Part shown: piece by piece, positions 14,061 through 54,086 of the stretch
Layout of the letters: each line of letters opens with the position of its first letter
Position numbering within the stretch: the first letter of the stretch is position 1
Origin: Candidatus Enterousia sp.
GTDB lineage: Bacteria; Pseudomonadota; Alphaproteobacteria; Rs-D84
DNA: 64,000 nt
Assembly: GCA_045645645.1 (NCBI GenBank)
Contig: JAZRJE010000016.1
Location: 30,153-94,152, forward strand
Reading direction: 5' to 3'
Notes under the pieces: model-generated
Databases searched by the model: none
Told to the model about the DNA's origin: nothing
Seen by the model: only the letters and a program-made list of their open reading frames with translations
Position numbers and translations under genes: made by a program

Positions 14061-14115
14061 TTTGTTTATATGTCATATGATATACATAAAATATATAAAA
14101 TGCTATGTTTTTATT

Positions 14116-15417: not shown

Positions 15418-15666
15418 GTTTGTGTCCCTTATGGATTTGTTGTGTTGCAATGTATTGTATGAAATATTAAGAAAAAGTACATAAATAAATTATTCCCCCA
15501 ATGGGGATGAATATGAACTAAAAAAAGTGATTTTTTTTATCATTTCATTATGAATTATAAAAGTTTTTATAAAAAAAATCAACATAATCATATGTGCCGA
15601 ATTTGTTTGCATAGGATTATTTTATTGTGTATGCTTGTGCCATAAATATTGCAAGGAAGGTTTATT

Positions 15667-28946: not shown

Positions 28947-29035
28947 TAAGATTTGATGATTAAAATAGGAATATGTTTGTAGATAAATAATTGTTGTATA
29001 TGGGGGAAAAGTTCTTGGTTTTTAGTGGTGGGTTG

Positions 29036-29044
29036 TGTTATAAT
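29036..29044 (+). promoter_or_regulatory. Extended -10 promoter element TGTTATAAT upstream of the OMP gene
   Basis: TGTTATAAT lies 22 nt upstream of ATG 29067, with SD AAAGGAG in between. Confidence 0.4.
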
Positions 29045-29066
29045 TTTTATCAAAAGGAGTTTTAAT

Positions 29067-36811: not shown

Positions 36812-36816
36812 TAAAA

Positions 36817-37023
36817 TTAGTGTCGCATAACCTGATTTAAAATCCATACGCGAATCGCAGATGATAGATTTTGGTCAGGTTTGCGTGTGTTATCTATTTC
36901 GCATATAATTGATGCAACTGACATATTGCGACCATCTGCGATGCGTTTTAATATTTCCAGAAATTCTGGTTCTAAGGTAATGCTGGTTTGGTGACCTGAT
37001 AAAGATACAGATATTTTTTTCAT
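36817..37023 (-). CDS. Ribbon-helix-helix protein (RHH_4/PF13467-like)
   Basis: KKISVSLSGHQTSITLEPEFLEILKRIADGRNMSVASIICEIDNTRKP.QNLSSAIRVWIL matches the pattern S.rl.GH.TSisLE..FW..L..iA...g.S...Li..ID......NLSSAlRvfvL. ATG 37023 lies 5 nt after the upstream stop; alternative ATG at 37053. Confidence 0.6.
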   Translation of the reverse strand: MKKISVSLSGHQTSITLEPEFLEILKRIADGRNMSVASIICEIDNTRKPDQNLSSAIRVWILNQVMRH

Positions 37024-37028
37024 GTGAT

Positions 37029-37463
37029 TTAATATTTCCCTGCTATTAAGCAATCAGTCATTGCCCGATATGGGTTGTCATATTTTCGCAGTATGCGCAG
37101 TGATAAATTGTCCAGCATATAACATGTCCCAAATGCATCAAATGCAAACCAAAACAGGTCGTTGCGACCAAATACCGTTTTACCAACTGTTCCAGGCAGG
37201 CCAGATATATCACGATTTATTTCCAATATACTGGGAACTGGGTTTCGTGGCCCGTTTTCAATTTCTTTTGGTCCAAATATATATCCAGAATCCAGTGATA
37301 TCCCGCCACAGTTTGTATAAAAATCCGTCATGAATGCAGGTAATATTGCTGCACGTAGATGTTGAAGATTGGAATTTGTTTGTCTTATTTCTGAATCAGT
37401 TGCACGTGGTGCAATTTTTGCACCGCGTGCAGATATAGCTGATAAAAATTCTTTGCTATTCAT
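37029..37463 (-). CDS. SUKH-1 / SMI1-KNR4 family-like protein (immunity-protein fold)
   Basis: SEIRQTNSNLQHLRAAILPAFMTDFYTNCGGISL..GYIFGP and C-terminal FWFAFDAFGTCYMLD match the SUKH hallmark (ie.aE..lg..LP..y..fl...NGg......l; f.fa.dg.Gn.y.lD). Confidence 0.55.
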   Translation of the reverse strand: MNSKEFLSAISARGAKIAPRATDSEIRQTNSNLQHLRAAILPAFMTDFYTNCGGISLDSGYIFGPKEIENGPRNPVPSILEINRDISGLPGTVGKTVFGRNDLFWFAFDAFGTCYMLDNLSLRILRKYDNPYRAMTDCLIAGKY

Positions 37464-37477
37464 CTTTTTTTGCTTTT

Positions 37478-37978
37478 TTATTCCCGCCCATCTGCCAGTT
37501 GTGCTGCCATTTGGGCCAGTCGGTCTTCGGTTGCGTTGCCACCGTCACCACCACCAGCGGTGTGTGCAGGCAGATATATCTTTTTTGCTGGGCTTGGTAA
37601 CCAAATTGTTTCTGCGTCGTTTTGCATAATTATAAATTGATCTAATTTTTGGCTGTATGGAAACGTCCAGCACATAAACATATTGTCCACTTCAAGTTTC
37701 CCGCCCCATGTTAGAGGAACACGAAGTCGGAATGATATGTTATTTGGTATATTGTGGCCCATAAGAAGGGCCATAAACTCATCTTGGCTAAGGTTCATGA
37801 ATGCCAGTTCTTGTACCGAATCAGTCAGATATGATGTAAATGTATGACACAGTTGTTTATATTGTTTGAACCAATCTGGTGATAGGCTGGTTGGGGTGGG
37901 GTGAATTTCAATTACTGGCATGTCACTCATCCCCATGTCAGACAGTATCTTTTCTGCCATTGATTGGTTTAGTTGCAT
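37478..37978 (-). CDS. Hypothetical protein with degenerate colicin-type HNH-like core (tentative) and Gly-rich acidic tail
   Basis: 166 aa. SD AGGGAA lies 7 nt upstream of the ATG. Its start overlaps the upstream stop (TAATG). SFRLRVPLTWGGKLEVDNMFMCWTFP resembles HH..P[IL]S..GG.....DN[IM]....P, with the His positions replaced. Confidence 0.5.
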   Translation of the reverse strand: MQLNQSMAEKILSDMGMSDMPVIEIHPTPTSLSPDWFKQYKQLCHTFTSYLTDSVQELAFMNLSQDEFMALLMGHNIPNNISFRLRVPLTWGGKLEVDNMFMCWTFPYSQKLDQFIIMQNDAETIWLPSPAKKIYLPAHTAGGGDGGNATEDRLAQMAAQLADGRE

Positions 37979-38880
37979 TACAGTTTCCCTATGTAGTCAA
38001 TGACGGTTGATATGTATTCTGAATATGCATCAAAATTACCATCGTCATCCGCTGTTAATGGCGGATTTGTGTGTTCCTTCATATAATCACGTACAGATTG
38101 CAGTGTGTCAAATATTAATATGTCTGATGTGTGCGAATCTGCGACGTCTGTTGCATGCAGGATAAATGGTATAACGTGTATTTCAACGTCATCTAGTGTG
38201 TCAGAAAATATTTGGGTTAATTTGCTTACACAAGAATGCATTTGCTGGGTTGAAATGCCCGTCGCCCCAAGGTATAAAATCTCGTCAGTGCCGATTGCTA
38301 GTACTGACATTTGGATTCCATTGATGCGCGGTTCTTTCTTTATAATGTAGTGGGCAAGAGAAAATATTTCGCGCAACTTTTCGTTATCTTGGGTATGTAA
38401 TGTTTGTTGTGCAGGTTGCGTTGTTTGTGTGTATGATGCGTTTACAACTGCTGTGTTTTGTGCGGGCGCAAATGTATTTGATGGCGCAATATTTAAACGT
38501 GGTGGACGTATAAGCGTGGGTGTTTCTATCTTTGGTTGTTCAAAGGCAGGTGTTTGTATCGGTTGTGAAACTTGCTGTTGGGATACAGGTGTCGGCGGTG
38601 TTGATTTCGTAATGTTTTTTTTAGATGGTCTAATCTTACGAAAACGAGGACGTATCAGTAAGTACAGACCAAATAGCGTTATAATTGTTGCGGCAACAAA
38701 TGAAAAATAAAACCAAAAACTGATTGGGGTACGTGTTGCCTGTTGCATGGCAAGATATTCCCAATGTGTACTTGAAAACAGGTTAAATCCGAATCGGGTG
38801 TTAAACCAAAAGCAGGTTCCTAATGTTGCACCAAGCAACCAAAGTACGCCAAGTAATATATTTTCAATCTTTCTGTTCAT
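37978..38880 (-). CDS. Hypothetical membrane protein (2 TM, Q/P/T-rich linker, unknown C-terminal domain)
   Basis: ATG 38880 (MNRKIENILLGVLWLLGATLGTCFWF...) is preferred over the track start 39012. Second TM at FWFYFSFVAATIITLFGLYLLI. Low-complexity segment TPPTPVSQQQVSQPIQTPAFEQPKIETPTLIRPP. C-terminal ~130 aa are globular. Confidence 0.55.
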   Translation of the reverse strand: MNRKIENILLGVLWLLGATLGTCFWFNTRFGFNLFSSTHWEYLAMQQATRTPISFWFYFSFVAATIITLFGLYLLIRPRFRKIRPSKKNITKSTPPTPVSQQQVSQPIQTPAFEQPKIETPTLIRPPRLNIAPSNTFAPAQNTAVVNASYTQTTQPAQQTLHTQDNEKLREIFSLAHYIIKKEPRINGIQMSVLAIGTDEILYLGATGISTQQMHSCVSKLTQIFSDTLDDVEIHVIPFILHATDVADSHTSDILIFDTLQSVRDYMKEHTNPPLTADDDGNFDAYSEYISTVIDYIGKL

Positions 38881-38890
38881 TATGATTTTT

Positions 38891-38913
38891 ATTGTATCAT
38901 ATTTATGATAAAC
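38891..38913. promoter_or_regulatory. Back-to-back divergent extended -10 elements (TGATACAAT on the minus strand, TGATAAACT on the plus strand)
   Basis: Minus strand: TGATACAAT (38899..38891), 10 nt from ATG 38880. Plus strand: TGATAAACT (38905..38913), 11 nt from ATG 38925. Neither gene has an SD. Confidence 0.4.
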
Positions 38914-38924
38914 TAAAAAGTGTA

Positions 38925-39599
38925 ATGATAGATTTAAATTCTTTTTTTTCTGATATTGATGGGCATGCTGGTGTATGGTGTGGTGTAGATACAAAAGGTG
39001 CAGATTTAGCACGGATGGTTGAATTTATAACAGAACAAAAAATTCACGATTTATCTGTGTTGCCAGAAGTTGTCCCTGTTGTTTGGCCATGGTTGGAAAA
39101 AATTGATGTTAATATCTTGGGACGTTTTTATTTGGGTGATGATACCATTAATACAGATGTGATTTCTGATTTGACTGTGCAGATAAATAAGTCTTTTAAG
39201 CATGGTGCAAATGGTGCAATGGTTTTTGTGCGGTATAAAAATCTGCATGATATGGTGGCACAGGTAGCGTTCGTACGTGATGATTTGTTCTTTAATCGCG
39301 AGTTAATTATTGGTGTCGATATTGGGGATATCGATTCGAATCAATGGGGTGATTTGTTCGAAAACCTAAGGCGGATAAATGCATCGGCGGTAATGTTTGC
39401 ATTGACAAAGGATATGGGTAAAAAATCGGACTTTGTGGGGCGGGTGTATGGGATGCTGAACGCGTGGGATGCTGAATTTAACGGGACATTGCATTTTGCG
39501 TTGGGCAACAGCGCAGAACGAATCGACCAGGCGCAAAGATTGGTTGCATCAATGCGGCCCGATTTGATGTCTGGATTGCGAATTTGGGTAAATTATTAA
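38925..39599 (+). CDS. Hypothetical protein (possible aldolase-type TIM-barrel layout, very tentative)
   Basis: 224 aa from ATG 38925. IDGHAGVWCGVDTKGADLARMVEFITEQKIHDLSVLPEVVPVVWPWL..IDVNILGRFYLG loosely resembles the DeoC-family N-terminal beta/alpha pattern. No confident family assignment. Confidence 0.4.
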   Translation: MIDLNSFFSDIDGHAGVWCGVDTKGADLARMVEFITEQKIHDLSVLPEVVPVVWPWLEKIDVNILGRFYLGDDTINTDVISDLTVQINKSFKHGANGAMVFVRYKNLHDMVAQVAFVRDDLFFNRELIIGVDIGDIDSNQWGDLFENLRRINASAVMFALTKDMGKKSDFVGRVYGMLNAWDAEFNGTLHFALGNSAERIDQAQRLVASMRPDLMSGLRIWVNY

Positions 39600-40219
39600 G
39601 CGTTTTTTAAGATTAAATATTTTGGGGCATCTGTGCCGGCCTTGTTTTTATGCTGATAACGCGTTTGAATAATTTCCATGTCTGGAATTGTTGCAACCAG
39701 GGATGTTGATTTTATTTGTTCCAATATCCAATCAAAATATTCCCAATGATCTGTGCCGATTATTATTTCGCCATTTGTGGATAAAAACTTTGATAATAAA
39801 TTTAAGAATTCAGCGGACAGTAATCGGCGTTTTTCATGTCTGGCCTTGGGCCAGGGGTCGGGGTGTAAGACCCAGATTTGTTCGAATTTTGAATCTGTTT
39901 CGCGCAAAAAATCCCGCACATCATCAGGCCAAATGCGAATACCAGAATATTCATCCAAAATCCGATTCGATTTTTCATCGGTTATTGCGGACAGCAAAGA
40001 TGCAACACCGTTCATAAATGGTTCGGCGCCGATTATGATTTTATCCGGGTTATTGCGTGCCAGGTCGCGCACATGTTCGCCCGCACCAAAGCCAATTTCA
40101 AGTATGTCGCCCGTTGTTGGTTTTATGGTTGGTAAAACCGTGTCAATCAGTGTTGATTGACGGGTGGATAATTTTTTGCCGTGACGGCGTCCAAATGTTC
40201 TTATTTCTTGTGTTTCCAT
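39596..40219 (-). CDS. trmB: tRNA (guanine46-N7)-methyltransferase TrmB
   Basis: FGRRHGKKLSTRQ, LEIGFGAGEH (SAM motif), IIGAEPF.NGVA, VLHPDPWPKARHEKRRL. ATG 40219; an upstream GTG at 40252 is possible. Confidence 0.85.
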   Translation of the reverse strand: METQEIRTFGRRHGKKLSTRQSTLIDTVLPTIKPTTGDILEIGFGAGEHVRDLARNNPDKIIIGAEPFMNGVASLLSAITDEKSNRILDEYSGIRIWPDDVRDFLRETDSKFEQIWVLHPDPWPKARHEKRRLLSAEFLNLLSKFLSTNGEIIIGTDHWEYFDWILEQIKSTSLVATIPDMEIIQTRYQHKNKAGTDAPKYLILKNA

Positions 40220-40267
40220 AGTTTTAGTATAGAATTGAGTTTTGTAAAACACAAGGAATATATAGAT

Positions 40268-40981
40268 ATGGCCGAGTATCCAGAAGTTATTAGTCTAATA
40301 GACAGTGGTTGGAATGATACAGAACCCGTTTACTGTGTTCGTGGTGATTTTAGTGGGGGAATGTATAAGCCAATAGGGGCTAATCAGATGATTGCCAACG
40401 AATTGTATGGTGCCATAAATGCGAACCGTGATTTTTTTAGACCGTGGTTGCCATGGGTTGATTCTGTGAAAAGTCCGGCAGATGAAATGCCAATTGTGGA
40501 ATCATTGGCCGACAGAACGACATGTAAATATTATCTGCGACTGAACGGGTGGTTGACGGGCGTGGTTGGCGTTGTTCGTGAAGATAAAAATACCGGGACG
40601 ATGGAAATAGGATATTGGCATGATCCACGATATAATGGTCATGGGGTTATGACGTGGGCCGTGGGCAAGGCTGAAATGTTATGTTTTTTGTATGGTGATG
40701 CGAAAAAAGTGGAAATTCGTTGTGCCACAGAAAATAAGCGCTCGCGTCGGATTCCAGAACGTTTGGGGTACAGACAAGAATGTATTTTACCGGCGGCGGA
40801 AAAAATGCCGTCGGGTGTGGTTCATGATATTGTTGTGTATTCTAAAACATTGTCCGAATGGCTAGAGAGACCAACGGGATTACAAAATGTGGTTTGGATT
40901 TGGCCCCCGAAAAGTTATCTTTATCAATGGGAAAAGTATCACAAATTGAAATCAGAATGGGAAAAAGGGAAACAAAAATGA
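40268..40981 (+). CDS. GNAT family N-acetyltransferase (RimJ/RimL-like) with ~40-aa C-terminal extension
   Basis: IGYWHDPRYNGHGVMTWAVGKAEMLCF...VEIRCATENKRSRRIPERLGYRQE. Its TGA overlaps the gltX ATG (ATGA at 40978). Confidence 0.7.
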   Translation: MAEYPEVISLIDSGWNDTEPVYCVRGDFSGGMYKPIGANQMIANELYGAINANRDFFRPWLPWVDSVKSPADEMPIVESLADRTTCKYYLRLNGWLTGVVGVVREDKNTGTMEIGYWHDPRYNGHGVMTWAVGKAEMLCFLYGDAKKVEIRCATENKRSRRIPERLGYRQECILPAAEKMPSGVVHDIVVYSKTLSEWLERPTGLQNVVWIWPPKSYLYQWEKYHKLKSEWEKGKQK

Positions 40982-42555
40982 GAACGGGTTTATCAAAAGA
41001 CTTAATCGCACGTGTATTGGGTGCGGCACCAAAATATACACTGGATGAATTAGAAGAAAAATTTCCGGCGCGCAATTTGCCAGATGGTGCAATGGTGACA
41101 CGTTTTGCCCCCAGTCCAACAGGTTATATGCATATTGGTGGATTGTATGGTGCGTTGATAGACTGTAAATTGGCCCAGCAATCTGGCGGTGTCTTTATGC
41201 TGCGAATCGAAGATACGGATACTAAGCGTGAGGTTGCAGATGCTGTTAATATCATAAATGCGTCTATGGACCGATTCGGTTTAAAATATAATAATGTTGA
41301 AAGTTATGGCCCTTATTATCAATCACAGCGCAAAGATATTTATCATTCTGTTGTTGCGCATTTGTTGGAAAATGGTATGGCTTATCCATGTTTTTTAAGT
41401 GCAGAAGATATGGAACAAATACGCGAAAATCAAAAGGCAGCTGGCTTTGCAACTGGGATTTATGGCGAATTTGCGCGCGATCGTGATTTAAGCGAAGATG
41501 AAATTCTTGCGCGTTTGGATAATGGTGAAATCCCGTCTATACGCCTGTATTCAACTGGTAATCCAGAACAGCGTGTGTTTTGCAAAGATGCGGTTCGTGG
41601 CTCAATCGGATTCCCAGAAAATAACGAAGATATTGTTTTAATCAAATCAAATGATGGATTACCAACATATCATTTTGCACACTTGTGTGATGACCACTTT
41701 ATGCGTACAACGCACGTTATTCGTGGTGAAGAATGGTTGCCATCATTGCCATTGCATGTGCAATTGTTCCGTATGATGGGGTGGAATGCGCCATTGTATA
41801 TTCATACATCAACTATCGATAAAATTGATGAGGAGACGGGTAAGCAACGTAAACTGTCCAAACGCAAAGATCCAGAAGCAAATGTTGCGTTTTTCCTGGA
41901 AGCGGGCTGGCCAGTTGAAGCAGTGATTGAATATTTGGGTAATATTGCAGCATCGGGCTATGAAGAAGCTAAAATGAAGGGGCAGGTTAAATCATTCTGG
42001 GATTATGAAATGCGTGCCAAAAAGATTCCTATGTCGGGGGCATTGTTTGATATGAAAAAACTGGAATGGTGGGCCAAGGAATTTATTGGGGCGCTGTCGG
42101 TGTCAGAATTGGTTGCGCGTGTAGTCGCTTGGGCAAAAGAATATGGTTCGGACGTTAACAAAATGCAGGTTGCAGACGAATCGTATCTGACCGCTGTTTT
42201 GGGTATTGAGCGTGATAATCCAAAGCGTGTACGTAAAGACTTTATCACTTGGTCCCAGACGTTGGAAAATGTTGCATTTTTCTGGGACGAATTGTTTGTT
42301 CCAAATACTGAATATGAATTTAATAATGGTGTATTAAAAGCATTTTTAGAAACGTATAACGAATCGGACGACAAGGATTCTTGGTGGGCAAAAATTGTTG
42401 CTGTTGCCGAATCGTTGGGTGTTAAAAACGGCGATGTTGCAATGAATCTGCGTGTGGCATTGTCGGGTCGCACAAATACGCCAGACCTGTATTCAATTAT
42501 GTCGGTTATGGGCGGGGAACGTGTAATCAAACGAATCGAAGGAGCGATCAAATGA
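40978..42555 (+). CDS. gltX: Glutamate--tRNA ligase
   Basis: VTRFAPSPTGYMHIGG (HIGH), RIEDTD, PTYHFAHLCDDHFMRTTHVIRGEEW, KLSKRK (KMSKS). ATG 40978 is chosen because homologues begin shortly before the HIGH motif. Confidence 0.9.
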   Translation: MRTGLSKDLIARVLGAAPKYTLDELEEKFPARNLPDGAMVTRFAPSPTGYMHIGGLYGALIDCKLAQQSGGVFMLRIEDTDTKREVADAVNIINASMDRFGLKYNNVESYGPYYQSQRKDIYHSVVAHLLENGMAYPCFLSAEDMEQIRENQKAAGFATGIYGEFARDRDLSEDEILARLDNGEIPSIRLYSTGNPEQRVFCKDAVRGSIGFPENNEDIVLIKSNDGLPTYHFAHLCDDHFMRTTHVIRGEEWLPSLPLHVQLFRMMGWNAPLYIHTSTIDKIDEETGKQRKLSKRKDPEANVAFFLEAGWPVEAVIEYLGNIAASGYEEAKMKGQVKSFWDYEMRAKKIPMSGALFDMKKLEWWAKEFIGALSVSELVARVVAWAKEYGSDVNKMQVADESYLTAVLGIERDNPKRVRKDFITWSQTLENVAFFWDELFVPNTEYEFNNGVLKAFLETYNESDDKDSWWAKIVAVAESLGVKNGDVAMNLRVALSGRTNTPDLYSIMSVMGGERVIKRIEGAIK

Positions 42556-43289
42556 CACAATCAAAACGGGCGCGAATCAAAGCGGTAAAAAAAGATGCAC
42601 ATGCATCAAAATTATTAAAGGTTTTACGTGCAACTGGATTGTTCCGCTGGGAAAAACCATCGACACACGCTGAAGAGGTTGTGAATATTTTAACGCATGG
42701 AATTGGAATCGGTTTGGCAATTGCGGCATTGACTTTGTTGGTTGTTTTTGCTGGTTTAAAAGGTGATGCGTGGGCAATTGTATCATGTGCGATTTTTGGT
42801 GTGACGATGATAACCCTGTATTTCGGGTCAACAATGTGTCATGCGATGATTGGTAAAAAGCATGAGTGCTTTTTTGAGGTTTGGGACAGCGTTGCAATTT
42901 ATGCTTTGATTGCGGGGACATATACGCCGTTTTTGTTGGTTAATTTGCGTGGATTTCTGGGGTGGGTTGTGTTTGCAATCCTGTGGGGAATTGTGTTGTT
43001 TGGATCGTATATGAAGATTAAAAATCCACGTCAGCAACCAAAATGGATGGTTGGATTATATGTGGCGATGGGTTGGACATTGGTATTTATTTTGCCAGCA
43101 ATGATTCGCACTATCCCAGCCCGTGGTATGTGGTTTATTTTGGCTGGTGGATTAGCATACACGATTGGTGTGATATTCTATCTGTGGCGTCGTATGAAGT
43201 TTTCACATGCGGTTTGGCATCTGTTTGTAATTGGGGGCAGTGTGTGCTTCTTTTTTGCAGTGCTGTTCGGGTGTATATTGGATTTGTAA
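42552..43289 (+). CDS. Hemolysin III / PAQR family channel protein
   Basis: 7-TM protein with NILTHGIG, STMCHA, and SHAVWHLFVIGGS motifs. Its ATG overlaps the gltX stop (ATGA). Confidence 0.85.
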   Translation: MTQSKRARIKAVKKDAHASKLLKVLRATGLFRWEKPSTHAEEVVNILTHGIGIGLAIAALTLLVVFAGLKGDAWAIVSCAIFGVTMITLYFGSTMCHAMIGKKHECFFEVWDSVAIYALIAGTYTPFLLVNLRGFLGWVVFAILWGIVLFGSYMKIKNPRQQPKWMVGLYVAMGWTLVFILPAMIRTIPARGMWFILAGGLAYTIGVIFYLWRRMKFSHAVWHLFVIGGSVCFFFAVLFGCILDL

Positions 43290-43394
43290 AAAGAATTTGC
43301 GAGGCGAGGGAGGGTGAGCGACCGTGGCAATCCAGTAAATATAATCAAATTATAAATCTTGATTTCGCCGAAAAATAGGCGTATGGTAATCATC

Positions 43395-43451
43395 ATGAAA
43401 CAAATTTATATGTTCTTTACAACTACTACTACAACCCCGTTGGGGGTGTAA
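43395..43451 (+). CDS. Candidate Thr-rich leader peptide upstream of thrS (MKQIYMFFTTTTTTPLGV)
   Basis: An 18-codon ORF with six consecutive Thr codons (ACA ACT ACT ACT ACA ACC, 43419..43436). A hairpin ACAACCCC-GTT-GGGGGTGT spans the last Thr codons through the stop. It ends 82 nt before the thrS ATG. Confidence 0.4.
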   Translation: MKQIYMFFTTTTTTPLGV

Positions 43452-43533
43452 TTTCTGTATTGCGGCGAACCGCTTAAATTCTTATAATCAATCAGTCAAA
43501 AAAATAATAAAAAAACACTAAGGGACAGTTATT

Positions 43534-45267
43534 ATGTCATATGATATTGAAATTATTCGTCACTCACTGGCGCATGTTATGGCGGCGGCGGTAAAAAAAT
43601 TACACCCAGATGTTAAATTCGCAGGTGGACCAGCAATTGAAAATGGGTTTTATTACGATTTTGATACAGAATATCGTTTTTCCGAAGAAGACTTTGCTAA
43701 AATTGAAAAAGAAATGCGCGATTTGATTAAGTCAAATGGGCGCTTTGAACAACGCAATGTGTCAATTGATGAAGCCAAAGAAATTTTTGCAGCGCAACCA
43801 TACAAAATGGAATGGTTGAACGAATATGATGCAGCGGGTGAAGCTTTGTCTATTTATACTTTCCGTGATTTTGTTGACCTGTGTCGCGGACCACACGTTG
43901 AATCATCCAAAGATTTACCACGTGATGCTTTCAAAATCCGCAGTGTTGCTGGTGCATACTGGAAGGGTGACGCAAAAAATAAAATGTTACAGCGTATCTA
44001 TGTTGATGCGTTTGCAACGAAAGAAGAATTAGATAATTTCCTGAAGATGCAGGAAGAGGCCGCCGCGCGCGATAACCGCAAATTGGGTAAAGATATGGAT
44101 TTGTTCCATTTCGAACCAGAATATGCACCAGGGGCTGTGTTCTGGCACGACAAGGGATATAGAATTTATCGTCGTTTAATAGAATATGTACGTCATCGTC
44201 AAGAATTAGCAGGATACCAGGAAATTTCAACACCAGCGGTTATGGACAGATGTTTGTGGGAACGGTCTGGGCACTGGGCGAAATATGGTGAACACAATTA
44301 TTCTGGTAAAACCCAAGATGGCAAAGTGTTCTGTATTAAGCCTATGTCATGTCCAGGTGGAATGTTAGTGTTTGGACATGGTTTGCGTTCATACAAAGAT
44401 TTGCCATTATATATGGCCGAATTTGGCAAGGTTCATCGCTATGAAGCAGCAGGTGGTTTGTCGGGTTTGATGCGCGTTCGTGAATTTACCCAGGACGATG
44501 CACATATTTTCTGTACAGAAGAACAGCTGGAAGAAGAGGTTGTTAAAATCTTGCGCTTTATCAAAGATATTTACGGTAAATTCGGATTTGATAAAATTAC
44601 AATGAAATTGGCTACACGAAAAGAATCTGAATTCCGTATCGGTTCAGATGAAATCTGGGACAAAGCCGAAGGTGCATTGAAACATGCGCTGGAATCAAAT
44701 GGTATTGAATTCGAAATCGCAGAAGGAGATGCTGCATTCTATGGTCCGAAAATCGATAACTATCTGCGTGATTCAATGGGACGTGTATGGCAGTGCGGTA
44801 CGGTGCAATTGGATATGAATTTGCCAGAACGATTCGATTTGAGTTATGTCGGTGAAGATGGCGAAAAACATCGTCCGATTATGTTGCATCGTGCAATGCT
44901 GGGGTCGATTGAACGCTTTATGGGAATCTTGCTGGAATCAACAGGTGGAAATTTACCTTTGTGGTTGAGTCCAGAGCCAGTTGTTGTCACACCAATTTCA
45001 GAAAAACATGCAGAATATGCAAACGAAGTTGTAGCAGCTCTGCGTGCGGTGGGCGTAAATACACGTGCAGATTTGCGTGATGAAAAAGTGAACTATAAGA
45101 TTCGTGAACTGTCGTTGGCAAAAACACCAATAATCGCTGTTGTTGGTGAAAAAGAAATGGCAGACAAAATGGTAACACTGCGTCGTTTGGGACAAGAAAA
45201 ACAGGAATCTATGCCACTGGCAGAATTTGTTGAAATGATGAAGAATGCTGTAAAGATGCCAATGTAA
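43534..45267 (+). CDS. thrS: Threonine--tRNA ligase (lacks the N-terminal TGS domain)
   Basis: Starts directly at the editing (N2) domain: IIRHSLAHVMAAAVKKLHPDVKFAGGPAIENGFYYDFD. Class II core (FGKVHRYEAAGGLSGLMRVREFTQDDAHIF; the second H of HRAMLGSIERF is the expected Zn site) and an anticodon-binding domain. Confidence 0.95.
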   Translation: MSYDIEIIRHSLAHVMAAAVKKLHPDVKFAGGPAIENGFYYDFDTEYRFSEEDFAKIEKEMRDLIKSNGRFEQRNVSIDEAKEIFAAQPYKMEWLNEYDAAGEALSIYTFRDFVDLCRGPHVESSKDLPRDAFKIRSVAGAYWKGDAKNKMLQRIYVDAFATKEELDNFLKMQEEAAARDNRKLGKDMDLFHFEPEYAPGAVFWHDKGYRIYRRLIEYVRHRQELAGYQEISTPAVMDRCLWERSGHWAKYGEHNYSGKTQDGKVFCIKPMSCPGGMLVFGHGLRSYKDLPLYMAEFGKVHRYEAAGGLSGLMRVREFTQDDAHIFCTEEQLEEEVVKILRFIKDIYGKFGFDKITMKLATRKESEFRIGSDEIWDKAEGALKHALESNGIEFEIAEGDAAFYGPKIDNYLRDSMGRVWQCGTVQLDMNLPERFDLSYVGEDGEKHRPIMLHRAMLGSIERFMGILLESTGGNLPLWLSPEPVVVTPISEKHAEYANEVVAALRAVGVNTRADLRDEKVNYKIRELSLAKTPIIAVVGEKEMADKMVTLRRLGQEKQESMPLAEFVEMMKNAVKMPM

Positions 45268-45283
45268 TTTTAAGGGGGATAAT

Positions 45284-45424
45284 ATGAGAAAAATTATGTT
45301 GTTGGTTGTGCTGGTGATGCCATTTGTGCTGTCAGCATGTTCCAAAACGTGTGAGGTTGAGCCAATCGTAGAAGAAAATCATAAACTGATTGTGCCACCA
45401 AACTTTGGACAGATGCCAAAATAA
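45284..45424 (+). CDS. Small lipoprotein (46 aa), DUF3035-like
   Basis: Manual translation: MRKIMLLVVLVMPFVLSACSKTCEVEPIVEENHKLIVPPNFGQMPK. Lipobox LSAC, SD AAGGGGGA 4 nt upstream, and an L.VPP.F motif as in small alphaproteobacterial lipoproteins. Below the track cutoff. Confidence 0.5.
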   Translation: MRKIMLLVVLVMPFVLSACSKTCEVEPIVEENHKLIVPPNFGQMPK

Positions 45425-45431
45425 TGATATA

Positions 45432-45467
45432 AGAGGCATGAGGGGTAAAAGTCATGTCTCTTTTTTT
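45432..45467 (+). terminator. Intrinsic terminator of the thrS-lipoprotein unit
   Basis: AGAGGCATGA (45432..45441) pairs with TCATGTCTCT (45452..45461) over 10 bp including one G-U. A T7 run follows. Confidence 0.7.
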
Positions 45468-45498
45468 ATTCTATCTGTTTGGTTATTCGTTTCTTTTG

Positions 45499-45507
45499 TG
45501 ATATAAT
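45499..45507 (+). promoter_or_regulatory. Extended -10 promoter TGATATAAT with TTGGTT -35 at 17-nt spacing (SPOR gene)
   Basis: TTGGTT (45479..45484), 17 nt, TATAAT (45502..45507), preceded by TG. SD GGGGGGA precedes ATG 45544. Confidence 0.55.
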
Positions 45508-45543
45508 GTATCGAGAGAATTTCATAAATGGGGGGATTTTACC

Positions 45544-46296
45544 ATGAACGATGATAACTTAGATTTATTAGATTTAGATGATGGAACTTCAATGGATGCG
45601 TTGCCTGAGGCTACGCCGTTTGCAGCACCAAGACCAAAGAAACCATGGTTGCTATTGACGGTTGGTTTGTTTGTTATTGTTTTGGCGACGTATGTTATTA
45701 TTCGTACTGTTGGTGGATCTTCATCTTCATCGATAGAGGTGGATTTGGATGTGCCTGCGATTGTTGTTGATGGAAAAACAACACCAGATATGAATGTTAT
45801 GCCACCAATGCCAGTGCCACAACCAGTTGCTCAGCCAAAGCCACAGCAATTACCACCGCAGCCTGTTGTGCAACCACAGCCTGTTCAACCAACACCTGGT
45901 GTTCCAGTGCGTGTCATTGAAGAAAGAAAGGATGTTACATTTAATCCTGTTGTTAAGCCTGTAGAAAAACCAGTTGTGAAACCAAAACCGAAACCTGCAC
46001 CAAAACCAGCAGCTAAGCAAGTTGTTAAAAAGAATGCTACGGGTGTGAGTGCTTCTGCATGGTATGTTCAGTTTGGTTCGTATAGTACGCGCGCTTTGGC
46101 AGAAAATGCGCAACGTCAAATGCGTAATGCGCACCAAAGTTTGTTCCAAGGGCAGCAGTTTGTTATATTGGCAGCTCAGTTAAAAAATGGTACAACAACA
46201 TATCGTTTGCGTGTCGCTTTCAAAACATCTGCTGATGCAAATGGATTTTGTCGAAATGCAAAGTCAGATGGTTTGGATTGTTATGTCGCAAGATAA
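45544..46296 (+). CDS. SPOR domain protein (septal peptidoglycan binding) with P/Q/K-rich linker
   Basis: One TM (WLLLTVGLFVIVLATYVII). Low-complexity PQPVAQPKPQQLPPQPVVQPQPVQP and KPVVKPKPKPAPKPAAK. C-terminal SPOR pattern WYVQFGSYSTRALAENAQRQ...YRLRVAFKTSADANGFCRNAKSDGLDCYV. Confidence 0.75.
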   Translation: MNDDNLDLLDLDDGTSMDALPEATPFAAPRPKKPWLLLTVGLFVIVLATYVIIRTVGGSSSSSIEVDLDVPAIVVDGKTTPDMNVMPPMPVPQPVAQPKPQQLPPQPVVQPQPVQPTPGVPVRVIEERKDVTFNPVVKPVEKPVVKPKPKPAPKPAAKQVVKKNATGVSASAWYVQFGSYSTRALAENAQRQMRNAHQSLFQGQQFVILAAQLKNGTTTYRLRVAFKTSADANGFCRNAKSDGLDCYVAR

Positions 46297-46311
46297 TCAA
46301 AGGGGATAAAT

Positions 46312-46500
46312 ATGAGACTGGGATGGACCGAAATAATTTTAATCGTTGTCTTGGTTATGGTTTTGTTTATGAGTAACAAAATTCCAGGGATGATGCGTAA
46401 TTTGGCGGATGGAATAAATGTCTTCAAAAAGGAGTTAAAAGACACAAAAAAAACTGAAGCCAAAAAAATAAATGCAAAAAAATCAGTCAAAAAGAAATAA
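46312..46500 (+). CDS. tatA: Sec-independent protein translocase subunit TatA/E
   Basis: 62 aa. GWTEIILIVVLVMVLFMSNKIPGMMRNLADGINVFKKEL matches the TatA pattern (TM, hinge, amphipathic helix, F.K). It is unlinked from tatBC at 61180. Confidence 0.8.
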   Translation: MRLGWTEIILIVVLVMVLFMSNKIPGMMRNLADGINVFKKELKDTKKTEAKKINAKKSVKKK

Positions 46501-46505
46501 AAATT

Positions 46506-46529
46506 TCCCCTAATATAGGGGATTTTTTT
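46506..46529 (+). terminator. Intrinsic terminator of tatA
   Basis: TCCCCTA, loop ATA, TAGGGGA, followed by a T7 run. Confidence 0.7.
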
Positions 46530-46555
46530 GTTCGTTGAATAAAAAATACAACGAC

Positions 46556-46577
46556 AAAAAGTGCGCCTTTGGCGCAC
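46556..46577 (-). terminator. Intrinsic terminator of rpsT
   Basis: GTGCGCC (46561..46567) pairs with GGCGCAC (46571..46577). On the minus strand it is followed by TTTTTGTCG. Confidence 0.7.
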
Positions 46578-46599
46578 AAATTTGTTTGCGTTCTACGCA

Positions 46600-46860
46600 T
46601 TAAGCCATTTTGGAAACTTTTTTAGCCAAGCGAGAAATTTTACGTGCCGCACGTTGCTTTGGCATGATTTTACCAGCAGATTTCATGATCTTGCTTTCTG
46701 CATTACGTGCCGCAACTGTTGCCGCAGCTTTATCGCCAGATGCAACCGCAACCAAAGCTTTTTTTGTAGCTGTTTTAACAGCACTGCGACGTGATGTATT
46801 AATAGCGTTTTTCTTGGCTGATACCAAAATTCTTTTTTCTGATGACTTATGATTTGCCAC
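46600..46860 (-). CDS. rpsT: 30S ribosomal protein S20
   Basis: MANHKSSEKRILVSAKKNAINTSRRSAVKTATKK... is the canonical S20 N-terminus. 86 aa, highly basic. Confidence 0.95.
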   Translation of the reverse strand: MANHKSSEKRILVSAKKNAINTSRRSAVKTATKKALVAVASGDKAAATVAARNAESKIMKSAGKIMPKQRAARKISRLAKKVSKMA

Positions 46861-46933
46861 TTTATTTTCCTTTTATTTTCGTCATGTTTTTGTTATTTTA
46901 TAGAAAAGAAACATAAAATCAAGGAAAAATAAC

Positions 46934-47524
46934 ATGATAGTTTACGTATTTGCAATAATTATAGCTTATTTGTTGGGTGCTATCCCTATGGGGTTGTTGT
47001 TTACAAAATTAATGGGTAAGGGGGATTTGCGAAAAGTAGGTAGTGGTAATATTGGTGCAACTAATGTTATGCGTGTTGGTGGATTGCGTATGGCTGGGCT
47101 TGTTTGGGTGTTAGATATGTTGAAAGCAATTGGGGCTGTATTTATTGGATGCTGGATTAGTGGTGTCGCATTTGGTGCGTGGTGTGGTTTCTTTGCTATT
47201 GTCGGACACTGTTATCCTGTTTGGTTGAAATTTCATGGTGGAAAAGGAATTTCGTCGTTGTTTGGTGTTTTGTTAGCAATCAGTCCAGTGGCTTTCTTGG
47301 TGTGTGGTTTGGAATGGTTGCTGGTCGCATTGACATCGGGTATTTCTTCATTAGGAGCTGTTGTTGTGTTTTGCTTAATTCCTGCTTTAGGATTCGCAAT
47401 TAATAGCTCTGTTGGGTGGCCCTTTTTGTGCATAGGATTGTTGTGTATGTGGCGTCATCGTGCAAATGTCGGACGATTGATTTCTGGAACTGAATCGAAA
47501 ATTGAATGGAAGTGGAAAAAGTAA
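46934..47524 (+). CDS. plsY: Glycerol-3-phosphate acyltransferase PlsY
   Basis: YLLGAIPMGLLFTK, D.RK.GSGNIGATNV.R, HCYPVWLKFHGGKG. 196 aa, multi-TM. Confidence 0.9.
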   Translation: MIVYVFAIIIAYLLGAIPMGLLFTKLMGKGDLRKVGSGNIGATNVMRVGGLRMAGLVWVLDMLKAIGAVFIGCWISGVAFGAWCGFFAIVGHCYPVWLKFHGGKGISSLFGVLLAISPVAFLVCGLEWLLVALTSGISSLGAVVVFCLIPALGFAINSSVGWPFLCIGLLCMWRHRANVGRLISGTESKIEWKWKK

Positions 47525-47528
47525 ATGT

Positions 47529-47556
47529 TGGGGCGCATGCCCCATTGTTTGTTTTT
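47529..47556 (+). terminator. Intrinsic terminator of plsY
   Basis: TGGGGC, loop GCAT, GCCCCA, followed by TTGTTTGTTTTT. Confidence 0.65.
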
Positions 47557-47581
47557 ATGTCTTTATTTTTATGTGATTTTG

Positions 47582-47590
47582 TGGTATAAT
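47582..47590 (+). promoter_or_regulatory. Extended -10 promoter element TGGTATAAT
   Basis: TGGTATAAT lies 28 nt upstream of ATG 47619. SD AGGGGA lies in between. Confidence 0.45.
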
Positions 47591-47618
47591 AACGCAAAGA
47601 ACATAGGGGATGTAGGTT

Positions 47619-48482
47619 ATGAAAGCATTAGTTGCGTTATTAGCAGTTTTTTCTGTGTATGTGTCTGCGTTTGCGGCAACACCTGAAAGTGGACGTGGAC
47701 GTGCGTCTATGGCGTATCAGATGGATTCGCGTGCAGCTGCATCAAAGCGTCAAATAGAGCATATTGCTGCGACTAATAATGTGAATAATGATGTTCAAAA
47801 GCCGCAAGATACAGAAAAAACAGAGGAAGAAGTTAAGCCAGAAGTTGTACCACAAAAGGATATGCGTGAACGTGAAAAGGCTGCTTGTATTAATAATAAT
47901 ATAGGAGTTGGGGCAACTTTTGTTTGGGCTTCTAGATATAGTAATGTCGCAAGTTATTCTTCGATGGTTGAAGATTTAGAAAACCCTGAAAACAATGTTT
48001 GTTTTGTAAAGGTTGAATTAAAATCTGATGATACACGTATAAATCTATCGGATATACCGACAAAGTATTTTGTTATGGAGGAAGGTATTACATGTGGTGC
48101 GTGGGCAAATGAAGAATCTTTAAAATCAAAGATTTTGGATGCTAAGAAAAAAGGGCGTACATGGGCCACTGTTGGTGGAGTTGTTGGTGGTGCTGGTATT
48201 GGTGTGGGCGCAATGGAATTGTTTGGAAATAAATTGATTGGTGGTGCGGTTGAAGGTCAGGCGGCATTAAGTGGTACAGAACTGTTGTGTTCACAGATGA
48301 AAGTTTTAAAACAAGAGAAGTCTTCGAAATATTATGATATTGTCGATGCGCTGAAGAATTTGAAAAAATATTGTGAGGAGACAGATTGGCCAAATGGTGA
48401 GATGCCAGCTGAATGTAAGCCAAGCTCAGATGATAAAGAAAACTTTAGAGGATTTGATTATAAAACCTTATTGGCTTGCTAG
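47619..48482 (+). CDS. Secreted hypothetical protein with Gly-rich hydrophobic segment; shares motifs with the protein at 51313..53190
   Basis: Signal peptide MKALVALLAVFSVYVSAFAA. Segments WATVGGVVGGAGIGVGAMEL and SKYYDIVDALKNLKKYCEETD have counterparts SIAGVVLGTAGGLITS and TKYASILSIIMRIKEYCTDPN in the 51313 gene. Confidence 0.5.
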   Translation: MKALVALLAVFSVYVSAFAATPESGRGRASMAYQMDSRAAASKRQIEHIAATNNVNNDVQKPQDTEKTEEEVKPEVVPQKDMREREKAACINNNIGVGATFVWASRYSNVASYSSMVEDLENPENNVCFVKVELKSDDTRINLSDIPTKYFVMEEGITCGAWANEESLKSKILDAKKKGRTWATVGGVVGGAGIGVGAMELFGNKLIGGAVEGQAALSGTELLCSQMKVLKQEKSSKYYDIVDALKNLKKYCEETDWPNGEMPAECKPSSDDKENFRGFDYKTLLAC

Positions 48483-48485
48483 AAT

Positions 48486-48515
48486 AAAAATCCCCATCAA
48501 GGGGATTTAATTTTT
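48486..48515 (+). terminator. Intrinsic terminator (AAATCCCC/GGGGATTT family)
   Basis: AAATCCCC (48488..48495), loop ATCAA, GGGGATTT (48501..48508), followed by AATTTTT. Confidence 0.65.
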
Positions 48516-48555
48516 GTCTTTTATTATTATATTTATATCAACTATACTTTTTGTT

Positions 48556-49572
48556 ATGAAAGATGTGTTTAATAAGTTGCTGATTTTGCGTACCCCAGGA
48601 ATTGGACCTGTGCGATATAACGCTTTAGTAAAAAAATTTGGGTCTGTTGATGCCGCCGCAGAAAGTTTAAAATTAGATGCAACACATATGGATATGGTGC
48701 GTCGGGAAATGGATATGGCGCAAAAGCTAAATATACATTATATTTCAGATGATGACGAAAGGTATCCCAGTAATTTGCGTTCAATAGAAAATCATTCGCC
48801 AGTTATAACAGTGCGGGGAAATTTGGATGTCTTAAATATGCCATTGGTTTCAATGGTTGGAACACGACATGCGACAGCTGCTGGGATGAATTTTATCGCT
48901 GATATTGCAGGAGAGTTTGTAAAAAATAAATTTTGTGTGGTTTCGGGTATGGCGATGGGGACAGATGCTGCGGCACATCGTGGTGCTTTGCGCGCAGGTG
49001 GAAATACTGTTGCGGTTTTGGCGGGGGGCGCAGATTATATTTGGCCATTAGAAAACGAATCGTTATATTGGGATATCGTTCAAAATGGTGCAATTGTTAG
49101 TGAGATGCCTGTTGGGTTTAAACCTGTTGCAACAAATTTTGTTCAAAGGAATCGAATCGTTGCGGCTTTGGGAAATTTTTTGATTCTGGGTGAAGCTGAT
49201 ATGAAGTCTGGTTCTATGACAACAGCACGATTCGCAAAAGAATATGAAAAAACAGTATATGCAATACCATCGCATCCGTCAGACCCCCGCAGTTCTGGGC
49301 CGAATTCATTGATTAAGTCAGGACATGCTGTGTTGTGTTTGGGACCAGAAGATTTTTTCGAAATAGGTAAAGAGTCAGATGGTAAAGATGAAAATAAAAT
49401 AAATAATATAAAAGAAAATCTTCTTATCGATGCGATTGGGTCGATTCCTGTATCAGAATCTGTATTGGCAGAGGTTGTCAAAAAATCTGTTTCGGAAATA
49501 AAAGCCGATTTGGTTGTCTTGGAACTGCAGGGGTTTGTGCGGAAAGTTGATGGCGGATATGTTCGTGCATAA
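48556..49572 (+). CDS. dprA: DNA-processing protein DprA (Smf)
   Basis: LLILRTPGIGPVRYNALVKKFGS, VSMVGTRHATAAG, VVSGMAMGTDAAAHRGAL, VAVLAGGAD..YP.EN, MPVGFKP....F.QRNRIVAAL, and a C-terminal winged helix (LELQGFV). ATG 48556. Confidence 0.85.
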   Translation: MKDVFNKLLILRTPGIGPVRYNALVKKFGSVDAAAESLKLDATHMDMVRREMDMAQKLNIHYISDDDERYPSNLRSIENHSPVITVRGNLDVLNMPLVSMVGTRHATAAGMNFIADIAGEFVKNKFCVVSGMAMGTDAAAHRGALRAGGNTVAVLAGGADYIWPLENESLYWDIVQNGAIVSEMPVGFKPVATNFVQRNRIVAALGNFLILGEADMKSGSMTTARFAKEYEKTVYAIPSHPSDPRSSGPNSLIKSGHAVLCLGPEDFFEIGKESDGKDENKINNIKENLLIDAIGSIPVSESVLAEVVKKSVSEIKADLVVLELQGFVRKVDGGYVRA

Positions 49573-49923
49573 CTTTTTGTATGTATATACAGTGTATATA
49601 CAAATGGCGAAAAACAGCCAAAAAAACGAATCGTTGTCAAAAAAATAAATGTTAAAAATCGGTTTAATATTGGTTGTAAAACGAAATTAATCTTATACAT
49701 TATCAGACGTATCCAAAACGATAGAAATATCAAAAAAAATAGGTGCGTATATTCTTGGGGAAGGAAATAAGCACCAAAGCGAGAGAGTGAAAGTTAAAGC
49801 TAACAAAAACACTAAATTTTTTCAGAACTGTGTTGGAAAAATTTAGCGTTTTTGTGCAGGTGTCTTTTGCAATCTAAACGCAGGGGATACATTGGCGAAA
49901 ACAGGAAGGAAAGGAGAAAAAGA

Positions 49924-51210: not shown

Positions 51211-51246
51211 AAAAATCCCCCTTATCCTTCCTTGGGGGATTTTTTT
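51211..51246 (+). terminator. Intrinsic terminator of dnaA; copy A of a ~35-nt palindromic element
   Basis: AAAAATCCCCC, loop TTATCCTTCCTT, GGGGGATTTTT. The loop is near-identical to the reverse complement of the loop at 53237..53248. Confidence 0.7.
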
Positions 51247-51312
51247 AGTTTTTGTTTTGTTGTTACGTGATTTTATGATAGAATACATGTGATATTATAC
51301 GGGGGGATTACA

Positions 51313-53190: not shown

Positions 53191-53219
53191 AAATCCCCCC
53201 CAAACAGGGGGATTTTTTT
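53189..53219 (+). terminator. Intrinsic terminator of the Cys-rich protein gene
   Basis: AAAAATCCCCC, loop CCAAACA, GGGGGATTTTTTT. Confidence 0.7.
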
Positions 53220-53226
53220 GTGTAAT

Positions 53227-53259
53227 AAAAATCCCCAAGGAAGGAAATGGGGATTTTTT
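53227..53259 (-). terminator. Intrinsic terminator of dksA; copy B (inverted) of the ~35-nt palindromic element
   Basis: AAAAATCCCC, loop AAGGAAGGAAAT, GGGGATTTTTT. Its reverse complement nearly matches the element at 51211..51246. Confidence 0.7.
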
Positions 53260-53267
53260 ATAACAAC

Positions 53268-54012: not shown

Positions 54013-54086
54013 GTTTTTCTCCTTATACTTATTGATATTTAGCGAGAGTGTATTATAATCGCCGTAAAATGCAAGAGAAAAACAAA

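Follow-up and report, generated by a model that had tools for sequence, protein, structure and literature searches.

Locus and genome context

The stretch of DNA analysed here, hereafter the window, comprises 64,000 nt of Candidatus Enterousia sp. (assembly GCA_045645645.1, contig JAZRJE010000016.1, positions 30,153-94,152 of the forward strand). It carries thrS, the gene for threonyl-tRNA synthetase (ThrRS), and directly upstream of it a short open reading frame (mini-ORF) rich in threonine codons, which is the element under study. Comparison of related sequences indicates that this element is very probably a sensor of the cognate tRNA, with a paralogue upstream of serS. Members of Enterousia (order Rs-D84) have genomes of ~0.75-1.0 Mb and lack amino-acid biosynthesis (PMC12306168).

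The coding sequence of thrS is located at 43534-45267 on the plus strand (577 aa) and is preceded by the Shine-Dalgarno (SD) sequence AAGGGA at 43520-25. The encoded ThrRS consists of a tRNA_SAD editing domain, the class II core and an anticodon-binding domain, and lacks the N-terminal TGS domain. In the window, gltX and a gene of the haemolysin-III family precede thrS; other genomes have a different upstream neighbour.

The mini-ORF (43395..43451, plus strand; ATG 43395-43397, TAA 43449-43451) consists of 18 codons and TAA and encodes the peptide MKQIYMFFTTTTTTPLGV. Six consecutive Thr codons, ACA ACT ACT ACT ACA ACC, occupy positions 43419..43436 and form the presumed sensor of Thr-tRNA(Thr). 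Between the stop codon and the thrS ATG (43534) lie 82 nt. On re-reading, the sequence agrees in all of this with an earlier prediction made from the letters of this DNA (the original prediction), which had also described the spacer at 43290-43533 as otherwise free of ORFs; its length, 244 nt, is correct, and strictly taken the spacer is not ORF-free, as mechanical ORFs in other frames overlap it.

The mini-ORF is preceded by a putative promoter, P1 (43359..43387, plus strand), with the -35 hexamer TTGATT (43359-64), a 17-nt spacer and the -10 hexamer TATGGT (43382-87), which ends 7 nt upstream of the ATG. The 3' end of the mini-ORF coincides with hairpin 1, the stem-loop of the candidate terminator T1 (43431..43449, plus strand), formed by ACAACCCC (43431-38), the loop GTT(G) and GGGGGTGT (43442-49). 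Its 5' arm is made of the last two Thr codons and the CC of the Pro codon, its 3' arm of the Gly and Val codons, and the stop codon adjoins the stem. The folding energy in the window is -11.2 kcal/mol, with one bulged A. This hairpin, with the last Thr codons as its left arm and its end at the stop codon, had been described correctly in the original prediction, as re-reading and folding agree. It is followed by the U-rich tail AATTTCTGTATT (43450..43461, plus strand).

A second putative promoter, P2 (43460..43488, plus strand), lies between T1 and thrS, with TTGCGG (43460-65) as -35, a 17-nt spacer and TATAAT (43483-88) as -10. Hairpin 2, GCGG-CGAA-CCGC (43462..43473, plus strand), is situated inside the -35 hexamer and the spacer of P2. 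Both had been noticed before, and their coordinates are corrected here from 43461-89 for the promoter and 43463-74 for the hairpin.

Loci used for comparison

A search with the ThrRS protein as query provided 80 loci from species-representative genomes. L001-L048 are Enterousia-type thrS loci (ThrRS 77-98% identical) from metagenome-assembled genomes of gut and rumen origin, which bear the label Candidatus Enterousia or unclassified Alphaproteobacteria, and L049-L080 are a sister group of 32 loci with ThrRS ~60% identical. Leader counts refer to the 46 Enterousia-type loci with readable upstream DNA, or to 47 when the window is included; codon statistics were computed from 44 distinct orthologous mini-ORFs, and the alignment and consensus fold from 45 sequences. 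Identical-protein look-ups made to extend the window returned 3-kb contigs only.

Conservation of the mini-ORF and its promoter

The original prediction had made its case depend on the recurrence of a Thr-run mini-ORF upstream of thrS in related genomes, and an orthologous mini-ORF is present in 46/46 Enterousia-type loci in addition to the window, whichever gene is located upstream. The orthologues have 16-21 codons with 4-8 Thr and are found 73-114 nt before thrS. The C-terminus reads Thr-Thr-Pro-x-Gly-Val-stop, with one extra codon in four lineages and Gly for Val in one. The leader mini-ORF was found in 0/32 sister-group loci. In the window alone the run is mildly unexpected, 0.17 chance runs of at least five Thr codons being expected per 64 kb in Markov-1 simulations, and the local fold of the window leader is unexceptional (z = -1.3); it is the retention in 46/46 related loci that takes the mini-ORF beyond chance.

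Codon usage within the leader separates into two parts. Non-stem Thr positions vary synonymously (ACT 60, ACA 87, ACC 8, ACG 11), and the loop codes for a freely varying residue (L, A, T, F, W, V). In 44/44 mini-ORFs, by contrast, the final Thr codon is ACC and Gly is encoded by GGG, both being minor codons in thrS, and the leader Pro codon is never CCA, whereas 17/21 Pro codons of thrS are CCA. The combination of synonymous Thr variation with frozen stem codons points to two superimposed selections, one on the amino-acid or tRNA identity of the run and the other on pairing of the stem. Counted backwards from the Pro codon, Thr occupies positions -1 and -2 in 100% of the mini-ORFs, -3 in 95%, -4 in 86%, -5 in 80%, -6 in 75% and -7 in 25%; conservation thus increases toward the hairpin, which fits a role of the proximal codons in masking it.

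A sigma-70-type promoter of the form TTGnnn-17-TAnnnT, with an exact 17-nt spacer and 6-10 nt before the first in-frame ATG, occurs in 47/47 loci. With a start 6-8 nt past the -10 element, the 5' untranslated region would measure 0-3 nt and the mRNA would be leaderless. Judged from this promoter geometry, the mini-ORF is probably leaderless. The absence of a clear SD sequence, listed in the original prediction as a caveat, is confirmed, and it loses its force as a weakness since P1 stands at this distance from the ATG in every locus. By comparative criteria the mini-ORF is real and functional. We infer that it is translated from the conservation of frame, start and stop, from the synonymous variation of its Thr codons and from the fit of the promoter-ATG spacing.

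The ThrRS of Enterousia begins at the editing domain. The proteins of sister group L049-L080 have ~60 extra N-terminal residues, and their genes have no leader ORF; among the sampled thrS loci, loss of the TGS domain and presence of the leader coincide.

Hairpin 1 as a candidate terminator

Across loci hairpin 1 has a mean folding energy of -10.1 kcal/mol (range -8.5 to -12.4). The core A-CCCC/GGGG-U is shared without change by 45/45 aligned sequences, and the loop is variable. Within the 12 nt after the hairpin, 5-8 T are present in all loci, the TT of TTTCT being invariant. A hairpin with a U-tail thus stands between leader ORF and gene, T1 is flagged by a simple terminator scan, and it is accordingly a predicted intrinsic terminator. 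Terminators at gene ends of this genome share the CCCC-loop-GGGG and U-tract build with T1; the one after serS, AAUUCCCC-ACUU-GGGGAAUU followed by UUUAAUAAAA, is an example. The U-rich tail is not just the upstream part of P2, because it still follows the hairpin without a gap in those serS leaders, described below, whose P2 stands 25 nt further away.

Short CCCC-loop-GGGG hairpins between A and U runs were observed as gene-end terminators at 14110-14133 (minus strand), 46506-46522, 48488-48508 and 53195-53212, and such terminators can often act in either direction. Within 36000-55000 the terminator scan returned 33 sites, against 14.5 expected. The C within the T1 U tract is nearly invariant.

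Internal promoter and hairpin 2

The P2 pattern TTGCnn, 16-18 nt, (T/A)A(T/A)AAT is present in 47/47 loci, with a spacer of 17 nt in 39/47, and its TTGC and AAT are invariant alignment columns. On this conservation P2 is likely to be the basal promoter of thrS, and a second start site downstream of 43451, at P2, very probably exists alongside P1.

Hairpin 2 is maintained by covariation of its arms, which are found as GCGG/CCGC, GCGA/UCGC, GCGU/ACGC, GCGC/GCGC and GCAC/GUGC. Its loop measures 4-9 nt, the closing pairs are often G.U, and its stability exceeds that of shuffled spacers (mean z = -2.1). The G.U pairs and the variable loop indicate a structure of plus-strand RNA and not a protein-binding palindrome. 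Such RNA must originate upstream of P2, so that transcripts would cross the promoter.

Of the two hairpins described in the original prediction, the terminator candidate is hairpin 1 with its U-rich tail; hairpin 2 was rejected for this role, as it lacks a U tract in most lineages and sits inside a promoter with fixed 17-nt spacing. Its interpretation as a site for a dimeric protein was rejected on loop length and G.U pairs. A general promoter feature was also considered and rejected: among the remaining TTGC-type promoter-like sites of the window, a comparably stable stem occurs only at 58981 in a coding region, and this one was treated as a chance match.

A serine-codon cassette upstream of serS

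When the window was searched for short ORFs that begin a few nucleotides after a promoter, a sister cassette was detected at 15490..15582 on the minus strand. It consists of TTGATT (15582-77), 17 nt, TATAAT (15559-54), a further 10 nt, and a leader ORF at 15543-15490 (minus strand) encoding MIKKITFFSSYSSPLGE*. The leader forms a hairpin, UCCCC-AUUG-GGGGA (~15507-15494, minus strand), which is followed by TAA and a U-rich tail. The serS coding sequence (15417-14140, minus strand; Pfam Seryl_tRNA_N and tRNA-synt_2b) begins with the ATG at 15417, 72 nt beyond the leader.

The cassette repeats the design of the thrS cassette with Ser codons in place of the Thr run. Its final cognate codon, TCC, stands where the thrS leader has ACC, and Gly is followed by GAA (Glu) instead of GUG (Val); as a consequence, the outer stem pair switches from A-U to U-A. 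No convincing P2 is present in the serS cassette of the window. Orthologous Ser-rich leaders were found in 12/75 metagenome serS loci and, in addition, at L082, L005 and L007, and several of these loci also bear the TTGCGN-hairpin-TATAAT module. The exchange of Thr for Ser, matching the enzyme encoded downstream, is the strongest argument from sequence that the run would read the cognate charged tRNA.

No such cassette precedes the third synthetase gene of the window, gltX. A Pfam scan of 20 window ORFs, all the largest included and ~40 smaller ones outside the scan, revealed no further synthetase, and the sequences flanking the 160 fetched loci contained no Ala- or Pro-run cassette.

The Ser codons AGT, TCA and TCC of the serS leader come from different codon boxes, and the leader therefore probably samples several tRNA-Ser isoacceptors. 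Most related serS loci (L084-L092, L101-L158) have no Ser leader. In these, serS either lies at most ~20 nt behind a thioredoxin-reductase-like gene or is served by one TTGATT-17-TATAAT promoter alone; the thioredoxin-reductase-like neighbour resembles the pyridine nucleotide-disulphide oxidoreductase gene that adjoins serS in the window. On this distribution, the cassette was gained or lost repeatedly.

Tests against known regulator classes

A short ORF rich in cognate codons is characteristic of classical attenuators, and 6/18 codons of the window leader are Thr. RNAalifold on the 45 orthologues yielded hairpin 1 only, without covariation, and no antiterminator. In constrained folds the 5' arm of hairpin 1 with its partner masked found alternative pairing for 0.4 of 5 nt, and the freed 3' arm showed only weak G.U pairing with the AUUUCU that follows. 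Neither consensus nor constrained folding therefore gave the mutually exclusive terminator and antiterminator pairs that the original prediction had envisaged, and the leader is not a classical attenuator. Within 43442-43457, the GGGGGU freed by masking the 5' arm can G.U-pair with the conserved AUUUCU past the stop codon, and it does so in 22/47 loci (constrained folds). Pairing of the 5'-terminal AUGAAA with the U tract, noticed by eye, showed no covariation and was discarded.

A cmscan of 42800-44000 against Rfam 15 at E <= 10 gave four spurious hits, with no T-box and no match to Thr_leader or another amino-acid leader family, and the whole 64-kb window contains no Rfam family at gathering threshold and no tRNA genes. 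The thrS operator of the Escherichia coli type was not matched either: the hairpin loops measure 3-9 nt, vary in sequence and show no conserved anticodon-like triplet, and hairpins 1 and 2 lie 45-100 nt upstream of the thrS SD. A ribosomally made peptide that is modified after translation, or another small peptide, was rejected as the purpose of the mini-ORF, there being no modifying enzymes nearby and the run matching the downstream synthetase.

In the minimum free energy (MFE) fold of the window, GUUCUUUAC pairs with the SD region UAAGGGACA, which suggested sequestration of the SD by the U-rich leader. This was dismissed across orthologues: placing a ribosome on the run leaves the unpaired probability of the SD and start region all but unchanged (0.51, against 0.49 in its absence; 45 orthologues, Wilcoxon p = 0.32), SD accessibility is alike in P1 and P2 transcripts (0.49 vs 0.55), and the consensus fold of the 45 sequences contains no conserved long-range helix.

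By its build the thrS leader belongs with leaderless ORFs whose cognate codons overlap a lone hairpin trailed by U residues and which have no antiterminator; architecture, not homology, delimits this class, and its mechanism is itself unsettled (PMC1262725, PMC8079986). For the Thr-tRNA-sensing leader proposed by the original prediction this leaves a divided result: the cis-acting Thr-codon ORF is strongly supported by its conservation, its synonymous codons and its serine twin, and classical attenuation is given up with the missing antiterminator.

Proposed mechanism

The region is interpreted as a cis-acting sensor of charged tRNA(Thr), namely a leaderless single-hairpin attenuator that acts homeostatically on P1 transcripts, with P2 as the basal promoter, a reading to which we give rather more credence than doubt. 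P1 would start the mRNA at or within ~3 nt of the ATG at 43395, and a 70S ribosome would translate the leader without an SD. The codons ACA ACC and two Pro bases would build the 5' arm of the CCCC/GGGG hairpin, which together with the U-tail would make T1 a weak intrinsic terminator. The outcome would be set by whether a ribosome is present on the Thr codons when RNA polymerase reaches ~43458: if the hairpin forms, the transcript stops, and if its 5' arm is masked, transcription continues through P2 into thrS. A ribosome awaiting Thr-tRNA on the hairpin-proximal Thr codons would mask the arm, with read-through and more ThrRS as the result. P2 would give a basal level independent of the sensor, and the Ser-codon version would control serS likewise. 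Several elements of this scheme are proposals drawn from sequence: that the ORF is translated, that its mRNA is leaderless, that T1 terminates, that transcripts continue into thrS and, most of all, which sign the response has.

Three considerations favour the homeostatic direction. Every characterised synthetase control is homeostatic, the serS cassette of the window has no convincing P2 as a safety net, and conservation of Thr rises toward the hairpin. As for the target, the lack of amino-acid biosynthesis in Enterousia (PMC12306168) leaves the synthetase gene as the sole plausible one for a Thr sensor.

Several observations weigh against this interpretation. The U tract of T1 is interrupted (UUUCUGUAUU), and T1 may be weak as a terminator. 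The conserved P2 could alone account for transcription of thrS. The Ser leader occurs in a minority of serS loci, which makes the cassette appear dispensable there. The absence of an antiterminator and the negligible alternative pairing of the 5' arm, reported above, also count against it. Metatranscriptome contigs of related strains span 43418-43637 and with it T1, P2 and the thrS start; DNA carry-over is possible, and DNA upstream of P1 is covered as well, which leaves the contigs silent on starts, stops and co-transcription.

A further difficulty is one of timing. A ribosome that keeps pace with RNA polymerase follows roughly 28-34 nt behind the 3' end of the RNA, as expressome structures indicate. 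At that distance it would already cover 43431-38 when the polymerase is at the U tract, whereas one held at the first one or two Thr codons would not occupy the arm. With a single hairpin and no antiterminator, fast translation would lead to read-through and an early stall to termination, contrary to the homeostatic direction. One of three things must consequently be true: there is a dwell of the polymerase at or before T1, of sufficient length for a ribosome to park on the proximal codons, the output is a factor or RNA stability, or the logic is inverse.

Inverse logic is unlikely, but for a lone hairpin without an antiterminator it is what the geometry leads one to expect. Only a ribosome closely trailing the polymerase would then mask the T1 arm, and shortage of Thr-tRNA would stop P1 transcripts and leave P2 only. 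The first Thr codon (43419) is located ~39 nt before the expected release (~43458), near the minimal spacing of ribosome and polymerase; the stop codon adjoins the stem, a placement by which a translating ribosome is expected to suppress termination; and the conserved P2 would be the safety floor that such a circuit needs. The result, however, would be a non-homeostatic positive feedback, unlike every characterised synthetase control; an essential gene would hang on a self-extinguishing circuit at serS, where a convincing P2 is missing; and the distal Thr positions on which inverse logic relies are the least conserved.

An improbable second route to homeostasis would employ hairpin 1 as a pause or synchroniser, a ribosome on the Thr run blocking Rho or RNases and giving more or stabler thrS mRNA. 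Precedents are tnaC, in which a ribosome blocks Rho, and ermC, in which a stalled ribosome stabilises the mRNA. The response would have the expected direction without the timing paradox, and hairpin 2 could be a pause site or a 5' protective stem. The leader is suitably poor in G, with no G and ten C at 43411-43438, and the 5' untranslated region is A/C-rich and G-poor in many lineages; ACN repeats are, however, poor as YC-type Rho sites. This route would not explain the U-rich tail, nor why the stop codon is so strictly placed. A rho gene was not found in the window or among the fetched loci, a result that carries no information on the remainder of the genome.

It is very improbable that no cis regulation exists, P2 being the sole thrS promoter and P1, mini-ORF and T1 forming a separate unit for a Thr-rich hydrophobic peptide or a small RNA. 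The three parts do make a complete unit, P2 is conserved in 47/47 loci, and in Sinorhizobium, another alphaproteobacterium, the attenuator-derived small RNA rnTrpL acts in trans (PMC6614838). Left unexplained would be the match of Thr to thrS and of Ser to serS, the constant adjacency to the synthetase gene whatever lies upstream, and the co-varying plus-strand RNA hairpin downstream of T1 inside P2. Translational attenuation, in which the leader pairs with the thrS SD and a stalled ribosome frees it, is scarcely credible despite the MFE fold of the window and the mycobacterial polycysteine precedent (bioRxiv 10.1101/834739), given the unchanged SD accessibility and the lack of a conserved long-range helix.

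For the homeostatic attenuator, one candidate mechanism is masking by a parked ribosome combined with a dwell of the polymerase, or a hand-over, between T1 and the abutting P2. If homeostatic sensing without an antiterminator is true, it is a mechanism not yet described for leader peptides. The cassettes may, tentatively and with considerable doubt, belong to a modular family of minimal attenuators composed of a promoter, a leaderless ORF, an NCC-CC...GG terminator stem and a hairpin-bearing second promoter, in which the run is swapped for each class II synthetase; ACC would serve thrS and UCC serS, and GCC for alaS and CCC for proS are predicted.

Other features of the window

A 675-codon ORF at 34784-36811 (plus strand) joins a YbeY endoribonuclease (residues 15-134) to an apolipoprotein N-acyltransferase (LNT_N, CN_hydrolase); this could be a fused gene or else two genes that read into each other for lack of a stop. 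A non-coding gap of 279 nt lies before dnaA (49852-51210; region 49573-51210), and the replication origin may be located nearby. ORFs 51289-53190 (633 codons), 29025-30311 (428 codons) and 37029-37463 (minus strand, 143 codons) had no Pfam match at E <= 0.001.

Comparison with known systems

Textbook control of synthetase genes comprises three solutions, namely the T-box, protein autoregulation and the pheM attenuator. Like pheM upstream of pheST in E. coli, the thrS leader is a short cognate-codon ORF directly upstream of a synthetase gene that would tie transcription to charged tRNA. pheM is SD-led and acts through mutually exclusive terminator and antiterminator helices, whereas the thrS leader is probably leaderless and has one hairpin, no antiterminator, sensing codons inside the terminator arm and a second promoter between T1 and thrS. 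In E. coli thrL a run of Thr codons likewise reads the charging of Thr-tRNA, but the target is Thr biosynthesis, Ile codons take part and classical alternative structures are used. The pyrBI attenuator of E. coli has a lone terminator hairpin in or at the end of the leader ORF, where a close ribosome prevents termination; its signal is UTP-dependent pausing of the polymerase, with no cognate-codon logic. The E. coli thrS operator, a mimic of the tRNA-Thr anticodon arm used in translational autorepression, and the T-box of Firmicutes also provide feedback on thrS, and differ from the leader described here, which gave no T-box hit and has no anticodon-like triplet in its loops.

The closest counterparts are found in Actinomycetota. 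RNA sequencing of Streptomyces lividans TK24 led to the prediction of the leaderless leaders thrL-thrS, alaL-alaS, leuL2-leuS and trpL2-trpS (PMC8079986); trpS and leuS attenuators were predicted in other Streptomyces, and pheM is cited as the gamma-proteobacterial example of a synthetase leader (PMC1262725). ThrL of S. lividans is MKRVRPFLETTPGFVPAR and also contains Thr-Thr-Pro-Gly (PMC8079986). It resembles the present element as a leaderless cognate-codon ORF before thrS with one hairpin and no clear antiterminator. It differs in its phylum, in having two Thr codons and no U-rich stretch past the hairpin, in that no internal promoter or second hairpin is described, and in its basis, a single genome with RNA sequencing; the Enterousia leaders have 4-8 Thr codons, a 47-genome comparison and a Ser paralogue. 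The original prediction had called Thr-tRNA-sensing attenuation of thrS an unusual regulatory solution, and with thrL-thrS predicted in S. lividans it is less unprecedented than that (PMC8079986; PMC1262725).

In the actinobacterial ilvB leaders, runs of Ile/Val/Leu codons overlap a terminator hairpin with poly-U, and the mode of regulation has been called unclear (PMC1262725). They share regulatory codons inside the terminator stem and the lack of an obvious antiterminator with the thrS leader, but control biosynthetic operons and not a synthetase; in the ilvB leader of S. coelicolor, mutation of candidate codons had no effect (PMC1262725). The leaderless polycysteine small ORFs of mycobacteria act translationally, their codon run pairing with the downstream SD (10.1101/834739). 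They have in common with the thrS leader a leaderless ORF and a run of codons for a single amino acid, on which ribosome stalling regulates the downstream gene, whereas run-SD pairing was not found at the thrS leader among the 45 orthologues. Full-text literature searches returned no account of an element of this kind, whether from Enterousia, from Alphaproteobacteria as a whole or from upstream of serS.

The locus is a well-supported natural alphaproteobacterial case of a synthetase gene wired to its own codon run, in which Thr before thrS and Ser before serS provide a natural codon-swap control. An uncultured, genome-reduced gut symbiont unable to make amino acids thus appears to retain dedicated sensors of tRNA charging. 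With ~65 nt, one hairpin and no antiterminator, the element offers a clean test bed, and it bears on the question raised by the actinobacterial leaders, how an ORF overlapping a lone terminator senses amino acids and in which direction. Being compact, the cassette is also a candidate part where expression is to respond to Thr or Ser, and it can guide the annotation of missed leader genes in metagenome-assembled genomes. That leader peptides precede synthetase genes is already known, established for pheM and predicted in Streptomyces; new here are the lineage, the sensing codon within the terminator stem, the modular exchange of Thr and Ser, and the conserved hairpin-bearing second promoter.

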